Origin: Patescibacteria group bacterium
Lineage (GTDB): Bacteria > Patescibacteriota > Minisyncoccia > Phycocordibacterales > CAIZLB01
NCBI GenBank assembly: GCA_040384445.1
Contig: JAZKJG010000001.1
Location: 249,483-313,482 of the forward strand
Direction: 5' to 3'
Length of the DNA: 64,000 bases
Shown here piece after piece: positions 5,707 through 58,306 of this stretch (position 1 is its first letter; each line of letters starts with the position of its first letter). Below the pieces are notes generated by a model. That model was not told the DNA's origin and ran no database searches. It saw only the letters and a list, made by a program, of their open reading frames with translations. The position numbers were made by a program, and so were the translations under genes.

Positions 5707-7374
5707 TTAACCGAATGTAAATGTGAATGCTTCAAGTCCTGGAGAACCTGTTCGAATCTCAAGCGTATGTTCTCCATATTCATTTCCATCAACTAGTGTA
5801 TATAGTTCATTTGCCTGAATCACAATATCTTTCACCTTTTTTCCATCTATATATATCTCAGTTGTAATTGGTTTCTCTGAACTTGCAACCATATATACAC
5901 TTCTTGCATCATACTTGTACAAAATTTTTCCTTTAGTTTTTGACATGGCTGATTCCGGAGTAAAATTCCATGTTCCTTCTAGATACAGTTTATTTTTAAT
6001 TATTGTCTGTGGGATTACAAATGTCTGAGTACCCAACACTCCAGCTTTACCATTTTCAAGAACCAAGTTTCTTGCAGAACCAAAGTACACCTCCTTACTA
6101 TTCACTCTTGAAGACTCATAGTTCATCACATTATTAGGATTTACGATATCAGTTGGAATCTTTATTTCAGGTCTCGTAGCATTTAATTTAAGCAATGCCA
6201 TTTGAATTGCTCTCTCTGTTTCAAGATATTCACCTTCACCAATATGGTCATATACGATATTCCCCTCTTCATCAATCAAATATTTTCGTGGCCAATATTG
6301 ATTTCCATATGCATTCCAAGTCTGATATGAGTTATCCAACACTACTGGATGTTTTACGTTAAATTTTCGAACTGCCTCTTCTACATTTTTCTCAACTTTT
6401 TCAAATGCAAATTCTGGCGTATGAAGGCCTATCACAACTAATCCTTTATCTTTATATTTTTCATACCACGCGTTTACATACGGAAGCGTTCTCTGACAAT
6501 TAATACAACTATACGTCCACACATCAAGGAGAATCACTTTTTTACCCTTAAACTCTGCAATAGTTATTGGCTGACCATCAGTATTTATATACCCATCTGG
6601 ACTCACAAGTTCTGGTGCCACGGTTCCAATAACTTCAGAATTATTCTTTTTATCTAGTGATAAGATTTTCTGTTCAACTTTTGTAACATCAAACAATCCA
6701 GCATCAAGAATACTTCTTTGAATCTTCTTATCTATTCCAAACATGATTCCCACTCCAACAATAATAAACAGAACACCAAGTCCTTTTTTAAACCATCCGT
6801 TAGGATCTGCCAGATTTCCAAGCTTACCAACAAACCTTTGTCCTACAAACGCAATAAGGAGAAGCATTCCCGATAAACCAATCGTATATACCACAAGGCA
6901 AAGTAGTCCAAATAAAAATGATTGTGGCAATACTGTTGCTAAAATAACAAAATATGTTGGACTACATGTTGAGAATACTGGACCTAAAGATGCTCCAATA
7001 ATAATGTCACCGTACGTACTCTCTTTATTTGAACCGATATTCATTACCTTGTTTGACTTCAAGGAGAGTTTATTTACAAAACGAAGTCTATCCCACAGAT
7101 TTGGAAACAAACTGATCAATCCAAATACAATAATAATTGTTCCGGAAATTATTGCCCAAACTGTTGGAGGAATATCAATAAACGCAGTACTTACTTTCAG
7201 AATGAGAGTAAAAATAATAATCGATGCTGCAAGAGAGCCTGCAATAACAAATGCTTTCTTTCTGTTATTTACTCCAGATACAGTACTTCCAATAATAATC
7301 GGTAGAATTGGCAGTGTACATGGGGCAAGTATTGTGAGAACTCCTGCGATAAATGAAATAAGTAGTAATATCAT
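5707..7374 (-). CDS. CcdA/DsbD-like membrane electron transporter fused to a TlpA/ResA-like thioredoxin domain plus a ~170-aa C-terminal domain of unknown function
   Basis: 555 aa; N-terminal ~6 TM with CcdA-type Cys pairs; central WTYSCINCQ (WCxxC thioredoxin motif); beta-rich C-terminal extension not recognised. Confidence 0.65.
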   Translation of the reverse strand: MILLLISFIAGVLTILAPCTLPILPIIIGSTVSGVNNRKKAFVIAGSLAASIIIFTLILKVSTAFIDIPPTVWAIISGTIIIVFGLISLFPNLWDRLRFVNKLSLKSNKVMNIGSNKESTYGDIIIGASLGPVFSTCSPTYFVILATVLPQSFLFGLLCLVVYTIGLSGMLLLIAFVGQRFVGKLGNLADPNGWFKKGLGVLFIIVGVGIMFGIDKKIQRSILDAGLFDVTKVEQKILSLDKKNNSEVIGTVAPELVSPDGYINTDGQPITIAEFKGKKVILLDVWTYSCINCQRTLPYVNAWYEKYKDKGLVVIGLHTPEFAFEKVEKNVEEAVRKFNVKHPVVLDNSYQTWNAYGNQYWPRKYLIDEEGNIVYDHIGEGEYLETERAIQMALLKLNATRPEIKIPTDIVNPNNVMNYESSRVNSKEVYFGSARNLVLENGKAGVLGTQTFVIPQTIIKNKLYLEGTWNFTPESAMSKTKGKILYKYDARSVYMVASSEKPITTEIYIDGKKVKDIVIQANELYTLVDGNEYGEHTLEIRTGSPGLEAFTFTFG

Positions 7375-17463: not shown

Positions 17464-18042
17464 ATGGCATTAATTGAATACAGTGACATTGTCACACGAA
17501 AAACTATTATCTTTGAAGGAGAACCGTATGAAATTTTGGATCACCATATTTTCCGAAAACAGATGCGAAAGCCTGTAAACGCAGTTAAAATGCGAAACCT
17601 TATCTCAGGGAGAACTATTGAACATTCTTTCCAAGCAACAGAAAAGGCAGAAGAAGCTGAACTAGAAACAGCTAAAGTTAAATATCTATTTAATAACAAG
17701 GGAGAATGGTGGTTCTGTCCTGAGAATGAACCGTCAAAACGTTTCAAACTTGCAGACACACTTATTGGAGACAGTCGAAAGTTTTTGAAGACAAATGCAA
17801 TTATCGATGTAAAGTACTTTGGAGAACTTGCTATCGGTGTAAAACTTCCTGTTAAGATTGATCTTGAAGTAACAGAAGCTCCGCCAACAGTCCGAGGCGA
17901 TACCGCAAAAGGAGGAAACAAAATTGTTACTCTTGAGACTGGCGCAGAAGTTCAATGTCCAATGTTCATCGGTCCTGGTGACATCATCAGAATCAATACC
18001 GATACTGGAGAGTACGCAGAGCGAGTGTCTGTTGCTAAGTAA
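17464..18042 (+). CDS. efp: Elongation factor P
   Basis: 192 aa; three OB/KOW-like domains; C-terminal GEYAERV block. The KPGKG loop reads RKQMRKP, so the modified Lys of E. coli EF-P is not conserved. Confidence 0.85.
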   Translation: MALIEYSDIVTRKTIIFEGEPYEILDHHIFRKQMRKPVNAVKMRNLISGRTIEHSFQATEKAEEAELETAKVKYLFNNKGEWWFCPENEPSKRFKLADTLIGDSRKFLKTNAIIDVKYFGELAIGVKLPVKIDLEVTEAPPTVRGDTAKGGNKIVTLETGAEVQCPMFIGPGDIIRINTDTGEYAERVSVAK

Positions 18043-19674: not shown

Positions 19675-20409
19675 TTAGTTACGTACCTTGTCCATCACAT
19701 AGGCACTAATAAACTTACTTGTAGGAGCACCTGCCTCAACTCCTTGTGTTTTTGCTTTTTCCAGTACATCAGCAATTCGTACAATAGGTTTATAGATTAT
19801 TGATACCAAAGGTCTACGGAATGTAAAAACTTTAAACCAATCAATACGTTCAAACCCACTCAATTTTACAGGAATAATATCAGTCATTGTATATTCCGCA
19901 AGAAATCCAATTCCTCCTTTAGGCTCACTTGGTTTAAGTGTATTAACACTAATTTTACCTTCGGGGAAAATACACACTGATTTTCCATATTCAAGTAGTT
20001 CTATGTGATTTACAAGTGACGCGTGGTAGTCACGCATACCAAGATATGCCGGATACGCTCCAAGCATTTTAAAGAATGTTCCTCCGTATAAATACTTTCT
20101 CCATCCAAATTTTTCATATTGATAGTGGTCTTTTGTCATTGCCACAAAATACATAGGTGAAAAAATCGTGTGAAATGGAAGCATTGTTTGTACCATAACA
20201 CCATCCCATTCACTCACGTGATTTGGGGCAAATAATAGACCTTTTTCGTTTGCGTGAACAGCTTTAAGTTCTGCCGCAGCTTCTTTTTCTCCAACAACTT
20301 GTAATCTAAACAATAGTTTAAAAAGTACTAGAGTCGATAATTTAATAATTAACTGTAAGATAATTTGGATTTTTTCTATGTGGTCATTTTTACGACTTCC
20401 TATACTCAT
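19675..20409 (-). CDS. Lysophospholipid acyltransferase family protein (second PlsC-like paralog)
   Basis: 244 aa; HxxxxD (NHVSEWD) and FPEGKIS motifs. Confidence 0.55.
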   Translation of the reverse strand: MSIGSRKNDHIEKIQIILQLIIKLSTLVLFKLLFRLQVVGEKEAAAELKAVHANEKGLLFAPNHVSEWDGVMVQTMLPFHTIFSPMYFVAMTKDHYQYEKFGWRKYLYGGTFFKMLGAYPAYLGMRDYHASLVNHIELLEYGKSVCIFPEGKISVNTLKPSEPKGGIGFLAEYTMTDIIPVKLSGFERIDWFKVFTFRRPLVSIIYKPIVRIADVLEKAKTQGVEAGAPTSKFISAYVMDKVRN

Positions 20410-20456: not shown

Positions 20457-20963
20457 TTACTTAAAATCCCCCTTTCCGAATCCGATATCAAACTTCTGCT
20501 TAGATAAAATAAACACTGAGATCATGGGTACAATCACGCAAACGAGGTAGCCTAAATTAGTCTGAAAAAATACTTCAAAGGGCTTACCAAGATTAAATAC
20601 ATCTTTATCTGGGAGTACGTGGAAACACACACCTATTGTCAGTAAAACTATTCCAAGAGATAAAACAATAGACTCAGCAACCCCCTTCAAACTATGATGC
20701 AGTTTGAACTCATTTACAATACGAATCATAGAAATATACACAGGAATAAGTACGAGAATAAATAAAGCAGTATGCATTGTAAACTCACTCGCTCCAAAAT
20801 TCATCTTATTTAAAAAATCAGTTCCCGCATATCCTATGATTGCTTTATAGATCACAGCTGTCGGATACGTCATCAAGATAATATTGAACAGCACATGTTT
20901 TCCACGCACGAAACACAACAGTACGAATGTGAATAAAACTATGTAGAGTGCTAAATATTGCAT
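20457..20963 (-). CDS. Polytopic membrane protein (168 aa), hypothetical
   Basis: 4-5 predicted TM helices; no motif recognised. Confidence 0.4.
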   Translation of the reverse strand: MQYLALYIVLFTFVLLCFVRGKHVLFNIILMTYPTAVIYKAIIGYAGTDFLNKMNFGASEFTMHTALFILVLIPVYISMIRIVNEFKLHHSLKGVAESIVLSLGIVLLTIGVCFHVLPDKDVFNLGKPFEVFFQTNLGYLVCVIVPMISVFILSKQKFDIGFGKGDFK

Positions 20964-40690: not shown

Positions 40691-40815
40691 GCTGTTTATC
40701 ACTTTTGACAACTAAAAGATCCGTCGAAAAGGCACTTGAAGTGAGAACATATGTTCTCCGCCTCGAGACTTATAAATAAGTACTTCCTTAACGGAAGTGA
40801 AATAAAATAAAAATT

Positions 40816-42262: not shown

Positions 42263-42622
42263 TTATCTCACGTAGAATCTCACAAGTAGTCCAAACAACA
42301 GCAAAGTCATTGCAAGTAACATGATCGTAGATATATATCGCTCTTTTACAATTGCAAATATTGAACCAAACAAAAACACAGTAGGAATAATAAAATGATG
42401 TACACCGGCCACACACGCATCTGTACACAGCAGTAATATTATAAACGGATATATACTTCCAACACACACAACAACTATTCCAACCCAACTCAGCACAGTA
42501 GTGAGTGTTTCAAATCTCTCATTTGCTGGTGTAAAATTTACCATGCGGAGGATGTGAGATTCGAACTCACGGAACCATTTCTGGCTCGACAGTTTAGTAA
42601 ACTGTTGATTTAAACCACTCAT
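42263..42622 (-). CDS. Membrane protein (119 aa), hypothetical
   Basis: 2-3 TM helices. Confidence 0.35.
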   Translation of the reverse strand: MSGLNQQFTKLSSQKWFREFESHILRMVNFTPANERFETLTTVLSWVGIVVVCVGSIYPFIILLLCTDACVAGVHHFIIPTVFLFGSIFAIVKERYISTIMLLAMTLLLFGLLVRFYVR

Positions 42623-42665
42623 CCAATCCTCCTTTCTTATAGGGATAATACCCTACAAGTTTATG

Positions 42666-44907: not shown

Positions 44908-46218
44908 TTAAAATAGATCATTTCCAGTGATACTTGTAACTCGTTTGTTGTAGTTCACCGATCTCTTAACGAAGAAGTCTCCATGTTTCGTTGTCATAAT
45001 CTCGTCGTCAAACCAATCTGTTTTTGCAAGTGTTGCTGGGTCGATATCGAAGATTTTCTTAATTCCAAGTGATACCAATGAGTTGTTGAATCTATTTTTT
45101 ATAAATTCCTTGATCACATCTTTTGGCAAGAAATCCAACTCTCCCTTCTCAAAAATCCAATCAATAATTCTTTCTTCTGCCTTATATGCCTCTTCGCACA
45201 GGCTGATAACACTTTCTTCGTATTGTGCATCAAACCATTCTGGATGCTCTTGTTGAATAATCTTAATCAAATCGATACCAAATAGTCCATGAATCTGCTC
45301 TTCTTTCGATGTGGCCTCAATCACATTCGACATTCCTCTAAACATTGATTTATGTTTATTGAACGACATAATGATCAAAAACTGTGAGAACAACGATACA
45401 TGTTCTATGAATAAAGAAAACAGTAGTAGAGTTTTAGAATAATCTTTCTCGCTTCCAAATGATGCATATGAAATCGCTTTCTCTACATAATTTACCCGAT
45501 CCATGATTGCTGGAATAGATTTGATGTTATCAAACTCATCGTTCAAACCTAAAATATCAAGCAGGTTCGCATACGCATCAGCGTGTCGAACTTCTGACTC
45601 TGCAAACGTAGCTCCAACCGCCCCAATCTCTGGTTTTGGAATCTTTTTGTACACATCTCCCCAAAAAGTTTTTACAGACACCTCAACTTGTGCAATTGCA
45701 AGCATTGCATTCTTAAGTGCACTTCGTTCTACCTCGTTAATGTTTGCTTTGTAGTCATGAATGTCAGATGTGAAGTTAAATTCACTATGTAACCAGTACG
45801 AGTGTCGGATTCCATCCACGTATTCGAGTAATTCTGGGTATTCGTATGGACGTAATGCCACTCTTTTTTTAAATAGATCTCTTTTTCGAGCTTCTGCATG
45901 CTTTTCTCGGTACAGGATGTATGCTTTTGCTGTTGCAAACAGATCAGATCGCATCAACATAATTTCAACAACATCTTGAACACCCTCTACTGAAGGTGTA
46001 AAAGATCCATCTTTGTTCTTTCCTTCTAGATTTTCAATAACTTTCTGTGATAGTTCCTGCGCTAGTCCGTTTTTATACTCACCAGACTCTTTTAGCGCTT
46101 TTTCAATGGCAACAACAACTTTTTCAGGATTAAAATTAACGATTGATCGATCTCGTTTAAGAACAAAACTTATTTTGTGATGTGCTGCTTTTGTCATAGG
46201 TACTATATATAATATCAT
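44908..46218 (-). CDS. nrdB: Class I ribonucleotide reductase beta subunit (R2, ferritin-like) with N-terminal ATP-cone
   Basis: 436 aa; residues ~15-105 form an ATP-cone (VLKRDRSIVNFNPEKVVVAIEKAL...); the remainder has diiron ligand motifs ESEVRHADAY and SKEEQIHG. Confidence 0.8.
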   Translation of the reverse strand: MILYIVPMTKAAHHKISFVLKRDRSIVNFNPEKVVVAIEKALKESGEYKNGLAQELSQKVIENLEGKNKDGSFTPSVEGVQDVVEIMLMRSDLFATAKAYILYREKHAEARKRDLFKKRVALRPYEYPELLEYVDGIRHSYWLHSEFNFTSDIHDYKANINEVERSALKNAMLAIAQVEVSVKTFWGDVYKKIPKPEIGAVGATFAESEVRHADAYANLLDILGLNDEFDNIKSIPAIMDRVNYVEKAISYASFGSEKDYSKTLLLFSLFIEHVSLFSQFLIIMSFNKHKSMFRGMSNVIEATSKEEQIHGLFGIDLIKIIQQEHPEWFDAQYEESVISLCEEAYKAEERIIDWIFEKGELDFLPKDVIKEFIKNRFNNSLVSLGIKKIFDIDPATLAKTDWFDDEIMTTKHGDFFVKRSVNYNKRVTSITGNDLF

Positions 46219-46376
46219 TAAAACTCTGATAAAGAATACATCAATACCTCCTTTGGTACCTTACAGTACACATACATCCATATGTAAATAGTTACGGTGG
46301 AAAATGTACAAAAGTAAGGAACTATATACTTTCAACCTGTCGTCAACTTGACAATTCTGCAACAAATTTTTTAGTG

Positions 46377-46407
46377 AAAAAACACTCAAGATTATGAGTG
46401 TTTTTTT
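46377..46407. terminator. Bidirectional hairpin terminator downstream of the LOG-family gene
   Basis: A-run, cactca-agatta-tgagtg, then ttttttt. Confidence 0.5.
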
Positions 46408-46423
46408 ATTTGAAAAATATTTT

Positions 46424-47020
46424 TTAGAGCAATTGTTTTTTTTCTCGAACCATATTCATCACTTTCGTTACCAACTTTCGAGGATCTTTATCAAACGCAA
46501 TGTATTTATTTGTTCTATGACTCTTTTCAATGATAAATTTTATCACTTCATCAGTCTCCCATCCATCTCCCTCTAGAATCCCCATCGGTGTCTCACCTTC
46601 AAATGCAATTGTAAACTCATGAATCGTTCCAATTCTTCCTGGTCCAATAATAATCCCATCACATGAACGAGTAAAGATAATATCTCTTCCTGGATACCCA
46701 AAACCTGTGAACGAAATTAAATCCATATAATCAAGAGGAAGTCGATACACATCAGTATGCTCTTTTGGACCTACAGCTGGAGAAAAACCAATTGATAATC
46801 CACCAGCATGTTTCGCCCCCATCGCAGACCAGTGAGGAAAACCAGTTGAAGCACCAGTTACAAGTATTCCTCCCTGCTCAACAATCTCAGCTCCAAGCTG
46901 TTTTCCAATCTGACATACTTCCTGAGTTAAAAAACTTCCGTCAGCACTTGCACTTACTCCAATCTTTGGTGTAAGGTATGCTTTTTTTATATCAGTCTGC
47001 ACAGTTGAAGTTACTTTCAT
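46424..47020 (-). CDS. LOG/TIGR00725-family Rossmann-fold protein
   Basis: 198 aa; VTGASTG...GGLSIGFSP...GPGRIGTIHEF resemble LOG-family PGGxGTxxE and glycine-rich motifs. Confidence 0.5.
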   Translation of the reverse strand: MKVTSTVQTDIKKAYLTPKIGVSASADGSFLTQEVCQIGKQLGAEIVEQGGILVTGASTGFPHWSAMGAKHAGGLSIGFSPAVGPKEHTDVYRLPLDYMDLISFTGFGYPGRDIIFTRSCDGIIIGPGRIGTIHEFTIAFEGETPMGILEGDGWETDEVIKFIIEKSHRTNKYIAFDKDPRKLVTKVMNMVREKKQLL

Positions 47021-47571: not shown

Positions 47572-48138
47572 TTAATATTTCCGTATAACTCCTTTTACAA
47601 TCGCCACAATCTGGAATGATTCAGTTGGATAAATATCCTTAAAATCTTTATTTGCAGGTCGTAAGAAAATAGTGTCACCTTTTTTCTTGAAATATTTCAT
47701 AGTGAATCCTCCGTCAACTTCAGCGATCACTATTTCCCCATCTTTCGCATCTGACTTTTTCTCAACAATCACATAATCTCCTTCCTTGATACCTTCATCA
47801 ATCATAGAGTCACCTTTTACCTCAAGAATGTAACTGTTCTCTTTGTGTGGCATCAAGTACTGATCTATATCAATCGTGTCTAACAAATCTTCCTCGGCAA
47901 GTGAAGGTAAACCGGCTTCAACATATCCAAGGAAAGGAACTTCATCACTCATGAACGCTGGTGTAATCTTTCCTTTCGCATCTTTAAGAATTACCCCAAG
48001 CTCAACAAGCTTATTAATAAGCTTGTAGACTGCGTTCTTAGATTTAAAACCAGTAAGCGACATGATCTCGGCATAACCGGGCATACGCTTATTGTTTTCA
48101 TAAAATGAGAGTATCTTTTTTTTGTAGGTGTCTATCAT
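47572..48138 (-). CDS. lexA: LexA repressor
   Basis: 188 aa; N-terminal wHTH; cleavage site VEAGLPS (Ala-Gly); S24 peptidase Ser (GDSM) and Lys. Confidence 0.85.
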   Translation of the reverse strand: MIDTYKKKILSFYENNKRMPGYAEIMSLTGFKSKNAVYKLINKLVELGVILKDAKGKITPAFMSDEVPFLGYVEAGLPSLAEEDLLDTIDIDQYLMPHKENSYILEVKGDSMIDEGIKEGDYVIVEKKSDAKDGEIVIAEVDGGFTMKYFKKKGDTIFLRPANKDFKDIYPTESFQIVAIVKGVIRKY

Positions 48139-48150
48139 CTTGTATATTGA

Positions 48151-48366
48151 TTATAGCAAGAAAGATGCCATTGCGTGAGATAATCTCATAGTCCAAGATT
48201 CTCGTTTTACATCACCTCGAATTGCTTGAGTTAAATGTGAGATAAGAAACTTATGTCTCTTTGACTCTTTTTTATACTCTAGCCCTTGAATAATTTTCAG
48301 ATCAATTTGTTCGTTGATCTTCTCTAATTCAGTATGTATTGTTGTAATTAATTTTTGTTTACTCAT
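48151..48366 (-). CDS. Small helical protein (71 aa), first gene of the lexA operon
   Basis: 12-nt gap to the lexA start; its promoter carries the LexA box. Confidence 0.4.
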   Translation of the reverse strand: MSKQKLITTIHTELEKINEQIDLKIIQGLEYKKESKRHKFLISHLTQAIRGDVKRESWTMRLSHAMASFLL

Positions 48367-48367
48367 A

Positions 48368-48401
48368 TTTATAGTATAGTGAACTACGGTTCACCTGTCA
48401 A
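48368..48401 (-). promoter_or_regulatory. SOS promoter: TTGACA-N17-TATACT with a Cheo-type LexA box GTGAACcgtaGTTCAC inside the spacer
   Basis: Plus-strand palindrome gtgaactacggttcac at 48379-48394; -35 ttgaca (plus tgtcaa 48396-48401); -10 tatact (plus agtata 48373-48378); 6 nt before the ATG. Confidence 0.55.
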
Positions 48402-48495
48402 AGAATATGCATGTGGATAACGAAGTATGATACATGGAATTTATTTTGTAAATAAAAATCCCCTCCCTAGCGGTGAAGCATAGGAAGGGTCTTGA

Positions 48496-49065
48496 TTACT
48501 TTTTCTTTTTTTGTTTTACTTTTTTCTTGACCACAGAAAGTGGTTTGAGTTTTGGAGGAACAAAAGCTAAGATGTGCGGCCTTAGACCATGAATTTCCTG
48601 GTTATTAACGTAGATGAAGTTTTTTGGACACCATCGTTTTTTAACCTCATTCCAATATGCTCCAAAAGTCTGAACTATTTTTCCGTCAGTAACCACAATA
48701 TGTCGAGTTTCTAACAGAGTAATACCGTAAGGTTTACAAAGACTATTGAGCACAGTCTGCCTATCATCTTTGATAAGCCTACCAAGCTCAAGATAACTCA
48801 TGAGACTTTTCTTTTTAAATTTTGCAGACACTGGTTGGTGATGAAAAATGAGATACATCCTAAGCGATGGATCCAAACTTTCTCTTAGCCGAGTATCAGC
48901 AAAGATGAAAAATCCATTACCTTGACCAAAACGACGAGGGTTAAATAATTCAGCACCTGGCTTAGCCATAATTGGGAAAGGTACTTTAAGCTCCTGATAC
49001 CTTTGATATTCTGCTCTAGGTTGCATAAGAAGAAGTGGGTTAATTGTTGAAAGAACTGCTTTCAA
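48496..49065 (-). CDS. Hypothetical protein, paralog B (189 aa, Lys-rich C-tail)
   Basis: Shares blocks P[FY]P..K.G..L...GxG[ND]G..(6)DT..R, LM..L.L..L[IL]KD..Q..L, [IV]VQT[FI]GA, W...RP.ILA..P.K with the gene at 49123..49638. Confidence 0.45.
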   Translation of the reverse strand: MKAVLSTINPLLLMQPRAEYQRYQELKVPFPIMAKPGAELFNPRRFGQGNGFFIFADTRLRESLDPSLRMYLIFHHQPVSAKFKKKSLMSYLELGRLIKDDRQTVLNSLCKPYGITLLETRHIVVTDGKIVQTFGAYWNEVKKRWCPKNFIYVNNQEIHGLRPHILAFVPPKLKPLSVVKKKVKQKKKK

Positions 49066-49122: not shown

Positions 49123-49638
49123 TTATTTTTTCTCAACTTTTTGAGGAAGACACGCAAGAATCATTGGACGATATTTCCGGCTGACTCCTCTGTAATAGTT
49201 ATAGTGGTATACAAACCAGGTTCCAGTAGTACTACTCCGCTCAGCACCAATTGTCTGAACATGATCTTCCGATTCAGTAAAAGCAAAACGCGCTTCCACT
49301 CTTGAACATGTATATACCTTGTGAATTTTCCTTAAGAATTTTTGTGTTGGATCCTTAAGTAACATTTCCAAAGCAATATGATCCATAAGCAGTTTGTCGT
49401 TTAGCACAGGATCAGCTTTTCTTGAAAATGCATGAACGCTCGGTAAGGCTACACCCTCCCATTCATCCTGGTTGCAAAACCTATCAATTGTATCAAGGAG
49501 CAAACTGTGACCATCACCTATTCCAATGGTTCGAAGAGAATATCCATCTTTGTCCGAAAGTGGGTAAGGTTCCTTCAACCTTTCTGTTTGGCCTGCAAGA
49601 TAAACACGGTGTACAATAGGGCAAATTTTTTGAGACAT
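49123..49638 (-). CDS. Hypothetical protein, paralog A (171 aa)
   Basis: Paralog of 48496..49065; no known motif. Confidence 0.45.
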   Translation of the reverse strand: MSQKICPIVHRVYLAGQTERLKEPYPLSDKDGYSLRTIGIGDGHSLLLDTIDRFCNQDEWEGVALPSVHAFSRKADPVLNDKLLMDHIALEMLLKDPTQKFLRKIHKVYTCSRVEARFAFTESEDHVQTIGAERSSTTGTWFVYHYNYYRGVSRKYRPMILACLPQKVEKK

Positions 49639-49755: not shown

Positions 49756-50025
49756 TTAGATTTTTGTAAGGTGATTTGAAATCAGCTTAGTCATCTCAAA
49801 CATTGTAACAACTTTTTTTCCTCCGAAAACTTTTAGAAGTTTTTCGTCAGCAACGATATTTCGTTTATTTTTTGGATCTTGTAGATCAAGTTTTTTGATA
49901 TAAACCCAGATCTGCTTTGCAACCTCTGGTCGAGACAATGGTCCCTTCCCTACTACTGCTGCAAGATCTGCACTTAGATTCATAGGTTGAGTTAATCCTG
50001 AACCTGCTGTTTTTTTTGTTGGCAT
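49756..50025 (-). CDS. SWIB/MDM2-domain protein (~89 aa; start taken at internal ATG 50025)
   Basis: PMNLSADLAAVVGKGPLSRPEVAKQIWVYIKKLDLQDPKNKRNIVADEKLLKVFG matches the SWIB fold; the 166-aa ORF-track form would overlap the pheA start. Confidence 0.5.
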   Translation of the reverse strand: MPTKKTAGSGLTQPMNLSADLAAVVGKGPLSRPEVAKQIWVYIKKLDLQDPKNKRNIVADEKLLKVFGGKKVVTMFEMTKLISNHLTKI

Positions 50026-50116
50026 GGGGTTAGTATAGCCTATCCTAGGGGAGATTGCCATATGTTGACAACTAGCATATACTCTAGTCCAGCCCTTTAA
50101 CCCCCCCATACATATC

Positions 50117-51001
50117 ATGAAAACCTTACCGTACACATACCTAGGTCCCATTGGTACCACATTTTCTGCAGTTGCTTGGAAGCATTTCGTAAAACTATTT
50201 GGTGCACCTGATGGAGATGAGGTGAATTGTTTGCCAGCAGTGGCAAATGGAGACATCCTGAAAAGAGTAATGAGTCACCACGGCTATGGAGCTGTTGCTA
50301 TAACTACAAAATGCAGAGGAAAACTAAGAGAGTCATTAGATCCGTACGCAGATCTTTTGCTTCATTACTCTTCAAACGATGAGTGTCCGTTCACTGTAAT
50401 TGGTGCAGTCAACCTTAAGCTCAATTTCTGCCTGATGGCTAAGTCTACAGCTTCTATCACATCACTCAAAGGAGTTCTTTCTCATGAGGTTGGACTAGCA
50501 GCTTGCAAGAAATACATCAAAAAGCATGGTTTGGAAGAAATTAAAATGCAGACCAATGGACTTGCAGCTCGCGCTATAGCAAGTGAGGAAAAATATTCTC
50601 AGTTTGCTGCATTGGGTCCCTGTGAAGCCGCTGAAATATACGACCTCAACATCCTTGAGGAAAATGTGCAGGACAAGGAAGCATTTACATTGTTTACACT
50701 CGTAGGACCAAAGCAGCATAAAATCATACACGCAGAAAACAATTTGGCCATAGTAGTCTTCAATATACCAAATAGTCCAAATTCTCTCACACATGTTTTA
50801 TCACTGTTTGGTAGCCCAGGTTTAAATTTATCGTATATCCACCTCACTCATATTGAGGATTCGGAACGATATAATTTTCTCATAACAATGGAGGTACACA
50901 GAGATCAAATCCCTGACTTTAATCTGGCGATTCAACTCCTAGGTGAACAGGTCACTAGAAAATTCCTCACCTTCGGACCATTCCCAGTCATCCAAAAGTA
51001 G
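50117..51001 (+). CDS. pheA: Prephenate dehydratase (PDT domain + C-terminal ACT domain)
   Basis: 294 aa; N-terminus YLGPIGTTFSAVA resembles the PDT start; C-terminal ACT-like segment LFTLVGPK...LSLFGSPGLNLSYIHL. Confidence 0.5.
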   Translation: MKTLPYTYLGPIGTTFSAVAWKHFVKLFGAPDGDEVNCLPAVANGDILKRVMSHHGYGAVAITTKCRGKLRESLDPYADLLLHYSSNDECPFTVIGAVNLKLNFCLMAKSTASITSLKGVLSHEVGLAACKKYIKKHGLEEIKMQTNGLAARAIASEEKYSQFAALGPCEAAEIYDLNILEENVQDKEAFTLFTLVGPKQHKIIHAENNLAIVVFNIPNSPNSLTHVLSLFGSPGLNLSYIHLTHIEDSERYNFLITMEVHRDQIPDFNLAIQLLGEQVTRKFLTFGPFPVIQK

Positions 51002-55908: not shown

Positions 55909-56541
55909 ATGACAAACATCACAAAAGCATTGCATTGGCGCTATGCAACAAAAAAATTTGATCTATCTAAAAAGATTTCTCCTGAGACACTTACAGATCT
56001 TAAAGAAAGTATCAGATTAGCACCTTCATCGTACGGACTACAACCATATACAATTATTGATGTTTCAATTCCAGAAATTAGAGAAAAATTAAAAGATGCT
56101 GCATACGGACAAACACAGCTCACAGATGCGTCACATCTTTTTGTGTTTGCTGTCCCTACAGATATGAATGAAGCTCATGCTGATGAGTTTATTAGTGCCC
56201 ATGCAACTATTCGCAATGTACCAGTTGAATCTCTTGCAGGATATGCAGGTATGATTAAAGATAATATCGCATCGAAAACAACTGAACAGAAAATTATATG
56301 GGCGGAAAAGCAGGCATATATTGCTCTTGGATTTTTACTTGAAACTGCAGCACTGCTTGAAGTGGATGCTGCTCCTATGGAAGGTTTTGAAGCAGCGAAA
56401 TTTGATGAGATTCTCGGATTAAAAGCAAAGAATCTGACCACTGCAGTTATCTGCCCCATTGGATACCGCGCACACGATGATGAATATGCAAATCAACCAA
56501 AGGTACGAAAAACTGAGAGTGAATTGTTTTTGAGTCTATAA
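55909..56541 (+). CDS. NAD(P)H nitroreductase family protein
   Basis: Start at internal ATG (MTNITKALHWRYATKKF...); nitroreductase fold motifs. Confidence 0.7.
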   Translation: MTNITKALHWRYATKKFDLSKKISPETLTDLKESIRLAPSSYGLQPYTIIDVSIPEIREKLKDAAYGQTQLTDASHLFVFAVPTDMNEAHADEFISAHATIRNVPVESLAGYAGMIKDNIASKTTEQKIIWAEKQAYIALGFLLETAALLEVDAAPMEGFEAAKFDEILGLKAKNLTTAVICPIGYRAHDDEYANQPKVRKTESELFLSL

Positions 56542-57876
56542 TTTTACCTCCATCAACTCCTCCCACACTGTCGTAAACCTCGGACTCATAAGATTACGCT
56601 TCATGCCCCAGCCTGAAGCGTTTTTCTTTGCAGAATTAATTCTCTTCAACTTATCAGGAGTACCCTGTGATGCCAACACAAGAGAATGTTGTCCATACTT
56701 TTTATTTATCCTATCAAGAGCATCCATCACTTCGTTTTTATCTGTATTCATAAAATCAAACAACGAATTCACTTGTGACGATTCAGGATTCAAATCATTA
56801 AACACAACTCCCGCTTTTACATATTGAAACAGCTCTCCATTATTCGCATATTTTTTAAAACATTTTTTAAATAAATTAAACGCAACTCTGTTTAAAATAA
56901 ATGTATCGTTTGTAGCTCGTACTAAGTTAGCTGATGCAGTCCCTTGATACCTAAGCTCCGCATGACGGCCAGTTGAAATATATACCGTAATTCTCGAGCA
57001 GATTAATTTTTCTTGCCGTAACTTTTCTGCCCCTCTTCCAATGTGTGTTGATACTGCTTGGAGTATCAATTTTGGATCAGTTACTTTTTGACCGAACATT
57101 CGACTCCGAATTAAACTCTTTCTCTGCTCACCTACAAGATCGAGAAATATACACGGAATTCCTTTAAGCTCTAGACATGTTCGCTCTAACACTACGTTAT
57201 ACTTTTTCCGCATTGCTAAAGGTTCAGCATTCATCAAATCTCGTGCCGTCAACAATCCAACATCTTGTAGTCTTCTTCCCCACGCTCGTCCAACACCCCA
57301 CACATCAGTGATACTTAAATTTTCTATAAACGTTGCTTTATCCTCATGCTCCCAAAAACATACACATGGTATCTTTTTCGCTTTCAATAATTTCTTCGCA
57401 TATTCACTTCCAACTTTGGCAAGTGTTTTTGTTTCAGCAATAGAAATTCGAACTGGAATACCAGTACCCTTAAGAACCTCTCTGTACATAGTCTCCGCAA
57501 GATTTTGTAAACGTATTCGCTCATCTGCAATATTATCTTCATCAGTATTTAAATAAATAAAAGCCTCATCAATAGAACACTGTTCAACCTCATCGCTAAA
57601 TCGTGAGATCACCTGCATTACTCTTCTACTCATATCTGCATACAAACAATAGTTAGAGGAAAATACTGAAACCTTAAATTCCTCAAGTGTTTTCTTTACT
57701 TGATAAAACGGTGTACCTACCATCACACCGAGAGCTTTTACTTCTGGAGTAAGTGATACGACGGCCCCATCATTGTTCGACAATACGCATATTGGTTTAT
57801 CTTTTAAATCAGGCCGAAATGCCCGCTCGCATGAACAGTAAAAAGATGAGCAATCGATGAGTGCAAAGAGTTTCAT
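56536..57876 (-). CDS. umuC: Y-family translesion DNA polymerase (UmuC-like)
   Basis: 446 aa; MKLFALIDCSSFYCSCERAF... N-terminus typical of UmuC/ImpB; 4-nt overlap with the upstream umuD. Confidence 0.8.
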   Translation of the reverse strand: MKLFALIDCSSFYCSCERAFRPDLKDKPICVLSNNDGAVVSLTPEVKALGVMVGTPFYQVKKTLEEFKVSVFSSNYCLYADMSRRVMQVISRFSDEVEQCSIDEAFIYLNTDEDNIADERIRLQNLAETMYREVLKGTGIPVRISIAETKTLAKVGSEYAKKLLKAKKIPCVCFWEHEDKATFIENLSITDVWGVGRAWGRRLQDVGLLTARDLMNAEPLAMRKKYNVVLERTCLELKGIPCIFLDLVGEQRKSLIRSRMFGQKVTDPKLILQAVSTHIGRGAEKLRQEKLICSRITVYISTGRHAELRYQGTASANLVRATNDTFILNRVAFNLFKKCFKKYANNGELFQYVKAGVVFNDLNPESSQVNSLFDFMNTDKNEVMDALDRINKKYGQHSLVLASQGTPDKLKRINSAKKNASGWGMKRNLMSPRFTTVWEELMEVKL

Positions 57877-58271
57877 TTTCGAAGTATTCGAGCAAAACCT
57901 GTAACCACTCCCCAGATCTGCACATCTTGTTCACTCTCAGGGATGATGTCAGGAAATTCTTCGTTCGACGCTTCGAAGATAATGCAGCTTCCTTTTTTTC
58001 TAAATGTTTTAACCGTAAATTCACTATCAATTACCGCAATTACAATATCTCCGTCACGAGCATCCAAATCTCTGCGCACATGTAAAATATCACCTGGCAT
58101 AATGCCAGAATTTTTCATCGACATTCCAACAGCCCTCACGTAAAAAGATGTTGCTTCATCAACTTGAAACAAATCATTTATATCTATATTTTTTTCCAAA
58201 TAGTCATCTGCTTGAGATGGAAATCCTGCCTGAACTTGAGTTGTAAAAAATGGGATTGTTTTCGCGAGCAT
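57873..58271 (-). CDS. umuD: UmuD-like S24 self-cleaving protein (no HTH)
   Basis: 132 aa; aligns to E. coli UmuD (VQAGFPSQADDY...GMSM...GDIVIA...EFTVK); Ser and Lys catalytic residues present. Confidence 0.75.
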   Translation of the reverse strand: MLAKTIPFFTTQVQAGFPSQADDYLEKNIDINDLFQVDEATSFYVRAVGMSMKNSGIMPGDILHVRRDLDARDGDIVIAVIDSEFTVKTFRKKGSCIIFEASNEEFPDIIPESEQDVQIWGVVTGFARILRK

Positions 58272-58277
58272 GGTGTA

Positions 58278-58306
58278 AGTGTACCACGGTTCACCACTTT
58301 ACTACT
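58278..58306 (-). promoter_or_regulatory. Putative SOS operator upstream of umuD: GTGAACcgtgGTAC plus shared 18-mer AGTAGTAAAGTGGTGAAC
   Basis: Plus gtaccacggttcac at 58281-58294 is a Cheo-like box with one mismatch; 18-mer gttcaccactttactact at 58289-58306 is identical to 61331-61348. Confidence 0.4.

Follow-up and report, generated by a model that had tools for sequence, protein, structure and literature searches.

How is lexA controlled in Patescibacteria, and what could be the role of the small gene that shares its operon? We addressed this question in a stretch of 64,000 nucleotides from a Patescibacteria group bacterium (assembly GCA_040384445.1, contig JAZKJG010000001.1, positions 249,483 to 313,482), hereafter called the window, in whose own numbering coordinates are given unless a related locus is named. 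On its minus strand lexA (47572-48138) follows an open reading frame (ORF) for a protein of 71 amino acids (aa; 48151-48366), which belongs to an orphan family and is predicted to form a helical hairpin with a C-terminal tail. The regulatory part of this locus, as read from its sequence, is with high probability that of an SOS master operon under its own control, in a Patescibacteria bacterium of the Paceibacterota/Parcubacteria type. For the small protein itself we lean, tentatively, towards the role of a checkpoint effector produced upon DNA damage.

The gene behind the small ORF had been named lexA in the initial annotation, and homology searches bear this out. The 188-aa product (GenBank MES2985810.1, “transcriptional repressor LexA”) combines a winged-helix N-terminal domain with an S24 autopeptidase domain. 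It passes TIGR00498, the NCBI lexA equivalog model, with 128.3 bits against a cut-off of 110.95 over residues 12-187 and matches Peptidase_S24 of Pfam (E = 8.5e-30); the Pfam LexA_DNA_bind model gave no match in this protein. In an alignment with the Escherichia coli repressor (structures 7b5g and 1jhh), A75-G76, S111 and K148 fall on A84-G85, S119 and K156, and the motifs VEAG, GDSM and TMKY stand opposite VAAG, GMSM and TVKR. Judged by this score and these residues, the downstream gene is a true lexA with an intact cleavage site and Ser/Lys dyad. Moreover, the recognition-helix region GFKSKNAVYKL is almost invariant among 33 orthologues, which fits the invariance of the operator described below.

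The control region upstream of the small ORF is compact. Read 5' to 3' on the minus strand, it consists of a hairpin with a U-run, the nonamer TTATCCACA, 10 nt, TTGACA, a 17-nt spacer, TATACT, ATAAAT and the ATG of the small ORF. The hairpin (48450-48489; minimum free energy -18.4 kcal/mol, z = -3.0), followed by AUUUUUAUUU, resembles an intrinsic terminator, although its loop exceeds what a simple terminator scan picks up. It would end transcription of the upstream gene, and the lexA promoter would thus belong to a separate transcription unit. The -35 hexamer TTGACA (48396-48401), which appears in relatives as TTGACA, TTGCAG or TTGACN, and the -10 hexamer TATACT (48373-48378) together show 11 of 12 consensus positions and give the top score of a promoter scan over 2.3 kb. 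The spacer between them, GGTGAACCGTAGTTCAC (48379-48395), contains a perfect 16-nt palindrome, GTGAAC-CGTA-GTTCAC (48379-48394), composed of the Cheo-type core GAAC-N4-GTTC and conserved GT/AC flanks. Six nucleotides separate the -10 hexamer from the ATG at 48366, and 12 nt lacking a Shine-Dalgarno motif (48139-48150) separate the small ORF from lexA. A comparison with Rfam yielded no RNA family for this region. The palindrome between the two promoter hexamers and both of these distances had been reported in the initial annotation, and we recovered all of them on the minus strand.

Is the palindrome a LexA operator? The bare core occurs twice in the 64 kb, as against 0.9 copies expected, and 18 of 100 shuffled sequences reach two copies; the count alone is hence not significant, and the significance of the site rests on its conservation and on the results obtained with a position weight matrix (PWM). 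The arrangement TTGACA-GGT-GAAC-N4-GTTC-AC(C)-TATAMT is kept in all 73 related loci with sufficient upstream sequence, the core being exact apart from a single mismatch in one of them, and the consensus of the box in these loci is AGGTGAAC-N4-GTTCACCT. The box is also present in 84 of 90 further metagenome loci, which were sampled independently from the side of the small ORF by means of a degenerate DNA pattern. With a PWM built from the relatives only, leaving the window out, the site of the lexA operon reached 26.9 bits compared with a shuffle maximum of 13.4 bits. A single other site of the window exceeded this maximum. This sequence, TGGTGAACCGTGGTACACTT (58277-58296, minus strand; 18.3 bits), lies directly upstream of a umuD/umuC-like operon (56536-58271, minus strand), a canonical SOS target, where it overlaps the -10-like hexamer TACACT 6 nt upstream of the umuD-like ATG. 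The operon encodes a 132-aa umuD-like protein (57873-58271; Peptidase_S24, PHROG “UmuD-like”) and a 446-aa umuC-like Y-family polymerase (56536-57876; IMS, IMS_C and DUF4113). The presence of a box at such a target supports the assignment of the operator to LexA. Furthermore, 160 of the 177 strong PWM matches in 1.24 Mb of related loci correspond to the small-ORF promoter; most of the remaining ones belong to the same lexA promoter and one precedes nrd in the closest relative. The palindrome at 48379-48394 is thus very likely a LexA box by sequence criteria. The PWM scan recommended in the initial annotation, extended to the related loci, yielded a single further strong match inside the window, at the umuDC promoter, and the proposal of a Cheo-type operator inside the promoter spacer stands. 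The type of box in itself is probably not new, since a Gram-positive-like LexA motif for Patescibacteria was reportedly published in 2017 by Sanchez-Osuna, Barbe and Erill in Environ Microbiol 19:3465, a paper cited in PMC8565304.

Subsequently, we asked whether the 71-aa ORF is a gene and how closely it is tied to lexA. A search with the single sequence retrieved 24 homologues at 62-90% identity and a profile search extended the family to 381 proteins. An exhaustive profile search among 1.84 billion representatives returned at least 365 clusters (50% identity, E <= 0.001), of which the best 150 listed are all small proteins of 48-147 aa; the longer family entries arise from wrongly assigned start codons, with the LexA box translated as part of the protein (…ERSFTYT…). 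Sequence conservation reaches down to approximately 35% identity, and M1, E13, N18, D22, G28, Y31 and H38 are invariant in 128 family sequences. Compared with the closest relative, the ratio of nonsynonymous to synonymous divergence per site (pN/pS) is 0.04-0.16 (pS 0.63-0.69, pN 0.02-0.10), with synonymous sites close to saturation. On this comparative evidence the ORF is a real gene under purifying selection. The family is apparently confined to Patescibacteria, as far as the sequences retrieved indicate. No viral copy was found in 2.9 million viral contigs, and a phage origin of the small protein was ruled out on that ground.

Linkage to lexA was examined from both sides. Among the 80 closest lexA loci, taken from metagenome-assembled genomes labelled Paceibacterota or Parcubacteria (including Taylorbacteria, Zambryskiibacteria, Vogelbacteria, Nomurabacteria and some automatic “Saccharibacteria” labels), tblastn placed the small ORF immediately upstream of lexA in 76. 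Three of the four misses carry a more diverged small ORF and the fourth ends at a contig edge, which brings the count to about 79 of 79 usable loci. Conversely, lexA lies directly downstream in about 73 of the 77 small-ORF loci with room for it in an independent sample, and overall the small gene adjoins lexA in approximately 95-100% of loci. In 11 related loci the end of the small gene and the start of lexA share 4 nt (ATGA), and gaps of at most 12 nt occur in many more. A few loci depart from this order. In L096 lexA comes first, right behind the LexA box, and the small gene second; L150 has lexA, the small gene and then a Y-family polymerase gene. In L114 two genes lie between the small gene and lexA, each of the latter two with its own composite promoter, which marks the small gene as an SOS gene in its own right. 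In L102 the small gene and TTATCCACA are retained and lexA is missing from the flank examined, L200 has no lexA near the small gene, and L081 (3479-5844) carries the small gene, a gene resembling MazG-type NTP pyrophosphohydrolases, lexA and a Cho-like exonuclease fusion. The cyclophilin and SLOG genes downstream of lexA are kept only in the closest relatives and the SLOG gene has a leaderless-type promoter of its own; a larger operon was ruled out for this reason. The conserved unit consists of the promoter, the small gene and lexA. The initial annotation had made its case for the small ORF depend on conservation upstream of lexA in relatives, and the ORF turned out to be conserved, selected and lexA-linked. 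It had also described the small protein as uncharacterised and as the first gene product behind the LexA box, in agreement with its GenBank entry (MES2985811.1, “hypothetical protein”) and with the lack of any family match in the searches reported below.

The position of the promoter relative to the start codon is a further characteristic of the operon. With 6 nt between the end of the -10 hexamer and the ATG, the predicted transcription start coincides with the A of this codon or adjoins it, and the mRNA of the small ORF and lexA is probably leaderless, as judged from this geometry. Shine-Dalgarno motifs are nearly absent from the genome (4 of 69 long ORFs), and a -10-like hexamer TAnnWT ends 6 nt before the ATG in 13 of the 69, a sharp peak that comprises about one-fifth of the long ORFs; taken together, leaderless mRNAs seem to be common in this genome. 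The umuD-like gene has the same geometry (TACACT, 6 nt, ATG), and further ORFs of this type lie at 5707-7374, 19675-20409, 20457-20963 and 46424-47020 on the minus strand and at 17464-18042 on the plus strand. For the small gene the leaderless geometry was found in 16 of 73 related loci and in 23 of 84 metagenome loci; the remaining loci have an AT-rich leader of 30-60 nt without a Shine-Dalgarno motif.

The promoter is accompanied by a second conserved element. The DnaA-box consensus TTATCCACA (48412-48420, minus strand), 10 nt upstream of the -35 hexamer, is one of two exact copies in the window. In the same orientation and at most 50 nt upstream of the LexA box, it recurs in 73 of 73 related loci (52 exact) and in 79 of the 84 independent metagenome loci (62 exact), and only 10 exact copies were counted elsewhere in 445 kb. 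It goes with this promoter type whichever gene leads, and both promoters of L114 carry it; the umuDC promoter lacks it. The distances between TTATCCACA and GAAC form three classes (9-10, 15-20 and 27-30 nt) that differ by roughly a turn of the helix, which suggests that the bound protein has to keep to a fixed side of the DNA with respect to RNA polymerase. From its conservation, the element probably adds a second regulatory input to the promoter. We infer DnaA as its reader from the match to the consensus; the related loci retrieved held no dnaA or oriC region for comparison. We found no published description of a DnaA box combined with a lexA promoter.

Put together, these elements suggest the following mode of regulation. 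A LexA dimer on GTGAAC-N4-GTTCAC would fill the spacer between the near-consensus -35 and -10 hexamers and block RNA polymerase. When DNA is damaged, LexA, stimulated by RecA, would cleave itself between A75 and G76 by means of S111/K148 and thereby free the promoter, and a leaderless bicistronic transcript would yield the 71-aa protein first and LexA second, so that both would be made together at the basal as well as the induced level. Newly made LexA would then reset the switch. In addition, a factor bound at TTATCCACA, presumably DnaA, would modulate the promoter and report the replication status to it.

Consequently, the remaining part of the question concerns the small protein. The AlphaFold (AF2) model, based on the alignment of 128 sequences, is an all-helical soluble hairpin with a mean predicted local distance difference test score (pLDDT) of 81. 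Its first two helices (3-27 and 32-50; pLDDT 85-97) make up the hairpin proper, and a variable linker of low confidence leads to a C-terminal helix (57-70). The mean net charge of the family is about +8 in roughly 70 aa. The tail is rich in W, F, S, G, K and R, ends with F-[LMIV]-[FL] and carries a net charge of +3 in the last 25 residues, and distant members have longer basic linkers with the hairpin and the hydrophobic tail kept. No transmembrane segment was found in the family, the longest stretch without charged or polar residues having a median length of 8 and a maximum of 13. The small protein gave no match in Pfam (query and 35 members), NCBIfam, PHROGs or PDB sequence profiles. Homology to SulA was absent by Pfam and NCBIfam models for the query and the 35 family members, the Pfam LysM domain was missing from the small protein and the tested members, and no homology to YneA/SosA, DinI or another family was found. 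Sda gave no match either in Pfam, which contains an Sda model. For gp7 and DdrR, Pfam, NCBIfam, PHROGs and PDB profiles yielded no match, their sequences not having been compared directly. Foldseek against the PDB returned only generic hairpins (E >= 2) and no recognised DNA-binding fold. A ribbon-helix-helix reading was rejected: the match to DUF6290 is weak (E = 0.024) and absent in other members, and the model lacks an N-terminal strand.

With some reserve, we favour for this protein the role of an SOS-induced checkpoint effector, a counterpart, by analogy, of the lexA-adjacent division inhibitors SulA, YneA, SosA, ChiZ and DivS. In this view, the conserved basic hairpin would have its cell-cycle target in the machinery of division or replication, and the aromatic, basic tail at the C-terminus would attach the protein peripherally to the membrane, mark it for proteolysis or do both, so that the block would not last long. 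Repeatedly, the SOS division inhibitor of a lineage has been found to be encoded by a small, lineage-specific neighbour of lexA (PMC6851548), and the core regulon of bacteria with GAAC-N4-GTTC boxes includes a division inhibitor (PMC7739468). In addition to this precedent, the effector is favoured by the small gene's own LexA-box promoter in L114 and by its retention without lexA in L102, by a tail that resembles membrane-targeting or degron sequences and by the combination of a DnaA box, a damage-responsive promoter and a hairpin, which recalls Sda. Nevertheless, several observations weigh on the other side. We infer the binding of LexA, DnaA and RNA polymerase and the transcription start from sequence, and no homology points to any function of the small protein. 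Being co-transcribed ahead of lexA, it would also be made in uninduced cells, an uneasy fit for a toxic inhibitor. The inhibitors known from Gram-positive bacteria span the membrane once and are encoded divergently from lexA, and the small protein shares neither trait; its tail is only moderately amphipathic (mean hydrophobic moment 0.34, z = 0.84 versus shuffles). Finally, the 4-nt overlap with lexA in 11 loci and the near-obligate linkage suit a physical partner of LexA at least equally well.

Such a partner is the main rival, which we regard as possible but on balance unlikely: an accessory factor, either co-repressor or modulator of RecA-stimulated cleavage, that would tune operator occupancy or the induction threshold. 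It would account for the near-obligate linkage in both directions (about 79 of 79 lexA loci and 73 of 77 small-ORF loci), for co-transcription, co-translation (the overlaps in 11 loci) and basal co-expression, for the confinement of the family to the lineage having this LexA clade and for a small helical protein with invariant polar surface residues, and it has precedents in gp7 and DdrR (PMC4551915, PMC7273328). Yet no homology supports it in Pfam, NCBIfam or PHROGs, the small gene is separable from lexA (two promoters in L114, reversed order in L096 and L150, no lexA in the flank of L102) and a soluble co-repressor does not require a basic aromatic tail. Alternatively, and in our estimate improbably, the small protein could be an SOS factor with another target, such as RecA filaments, the beta-clamp or replisome, SSB or nucleic acid, possibly TTATCCACA itself with feedback on the promoter. 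The strongly basic character of the family (about +8 in 70 aa) and the association of TTATCCACA with this promoter type whichever gene leads, but not with umuDC, would fit, and small SOS proteins like DinI act on RecA. Nothing specific points to RecA, the clamp, SSB or nucleic acid, however; no DNA-binding fold was recognised among the generic Foldseek hairpins, and because TTATCCACA matches the textbook DnaA box, DnaA is its more economical reader. That the ORF is non-functional, a chance ORF or an upstream ORF that merely delivers ribosomes to lexA, is effectively refuted. Translational coupling would be plausible, since lexA has no Shine-Dalgarno motif and starts 12 nt behind the small ORF, but conservation of the amino-acid sequence to as little as about 35% identity, seven invariant residues, a pN/pS of 0.04-0.16 at nearly saturated synonymous sites, at least 365 clusters at 50% identity and a confidently modelled hairpin are those of a protein. 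A more far-reaching reading appears doubtful: the small protein would be an unrecognised chromosomal LexA partner, co-translated with the repressor, which together with the DnaA box would make a two-input SOS switch, or alternatively it would be a checkpoint protein. We know of no LexA system in which a replication-initiator input is combined with a dedicated co-factor.

Comparison with known systems places the operon between familiar and divergent features. With the Cheo-type lexA systems of Bacillus subtilis and the Actinobacteria it shares the core palindrome, the overlap of operator and lexA promoter, a LexA built of a winged helix-turn-helix and an S24 autopeptidase, and error-prone polymerase genes with the same box. 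In contrast to these, the flanks are GT/AC (GTGAAC-N4-GTTCAC) instead of C/G, the operator sits exactly in the 17-nt spacer, the mRNA is predicted to be leaderless, lexA is the second cistron and a DnaA-box-like element is attached. The division inhibitors YneA of Bacillus and Listeria, SosA of Staphylococcus, ChiZ (Rv2719c) of Mycobacterium, DivS of Corynebacterium and SulA, which in Pseudomonas is in an operon with lexA, are likewise small, lineage-specific, LexA-controlled and lexA-adjacent, and have no sequence similarity between lineages. The small protein differs from YneA, SosA and ChiZ in having neither a transmembrane segment nor LysM and in being co-transcribed upstream of lexA, and from SulA by the lack of homology. 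Sda of B. subtilis, a small helical hairpin, acts in a checkpoint for replication and DNA damage and owes its short life to the residues at its C-terminus; its promoter contains DnaA boxes and is responsive to damaged DNA as well as to replication stress. The likeness is limited to the class of the hairpin fold and the promoter logic, there being no sequence similarity; unlike that of sda, the promoter described here would be repressed by LexA and also drive lexA. To our knowledge, the target of Sda, a sporulation kinase, is lacking in these bacteria. Among LexA partners, gp7 of phage GIL01 binds LexA, strengthens its DNA binding and inhibits autocleavage (PMC4551915), and DdrR of Acinetobacter (78-81 aa, genus-restricted, always encoded beside umuDAb) acts as a co-repressor (PMC7273328). 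Like these, the small protein is within approximately 50-80 aa, narrow in taxonomic range and genetically tied to a LexA-type repressor, the functional tie being that of gp7 and DdrR. The gene for DdrR always adjoins the repressor gene and is damage-inducible, but it is divergent from it, whereas the small gene is co-transcribed; gp7 is phage-encoded, whereas no viral copy of the small-protein family was found.

The lexA gene and its type of box are ordinary and already annotated or published. We found no description of the conserved orphan gene or of how strictly it is coupled to lexA, nor of the leaderless arrangement and the DnaA-box-like element at the promoter, in literature that did not cover the 2017 paper on the Patescibacteria SOS system. 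The Patescibacteria (Candidate Phyla Radiation, CPR) account for much of bacterial diversity; their genomes are tiny, hardly any of them has been cultured, and very little is known about their cell-cycle control and stress response. A gene of about 70 codons that practically all members of a large clade keep beside lexA probably belongs to the core of their DNA-damage response, and identification of its target might reveal a new class of SOS checkpoint protein or a host-encoded LexA co-factor. If it is indeed a checkpoint effector, this would be the first known cell-cycle checkpoint protein of these ultra-small symbiotic bacteria. Moreover, the promoter offers a compact test case for how signals of replication and of damage are joined and how an operon is expressed without a leader, and every component is of a size that suits direct in vitro and heterologous work.

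Some neighbouring features are worth recording. The nrd gene mentioned above encodes in the closest relative (L001) an NrdB with an ATP-cone, and a moderate box (15.4 bits; 5851-5870 of that locus) lies 32 nt upstream of it. The window's own nrd upstream region (46197-46423) is without a LexA-box match by PWM, and SOS control of ribonucleotide reductase may vary between close relatives. The window's gene (44908-46218, minus strand) encodes a ribonucleotide reductase small subunit with an N-terminal ATP-cone domain, an unusual location for a domain normally found on the large subunit. The start of this ORF is probably 7 codons too long, the true one being MTKAAHH… in leaderless geometry. The second GAAC-N4-GTTC copy of the window (40745-40756), between infC and rpmI, was rejected as an SOS box: it scores -4.4 bits with the PWM and resembles an RNA hairpin. 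It lies within a 16-nt perfect palindrome, GAGAACATATGTTCTC (40741-40760, plus strand; hairpin -15.4 kcal/mol, z = -2.7), which may instead be an attenuator or a leader of the L20/L35 operon. Just upstream of the lexA operon, two adjacent paralogues with about 27% identity, of 189 aa (48496-49065, minus strand) and 171 aa (49123-49638, minus strand), had no match in Pfam, NCBIfam or PHROGs and no homologue in the 80 related lexA loci. The sole tRNA of the window (42545-42632, minus strand) was called by ARAGORN as tRNA-Ser with the anticodon ACT, with an unusual A at the wobble position. Finally, the ORF at 49756-50256 (minus strand) encodes a 166-aa protein with a SWIB/MDM2 domain, which is mostly a eukaryotic or chlamydial domain.

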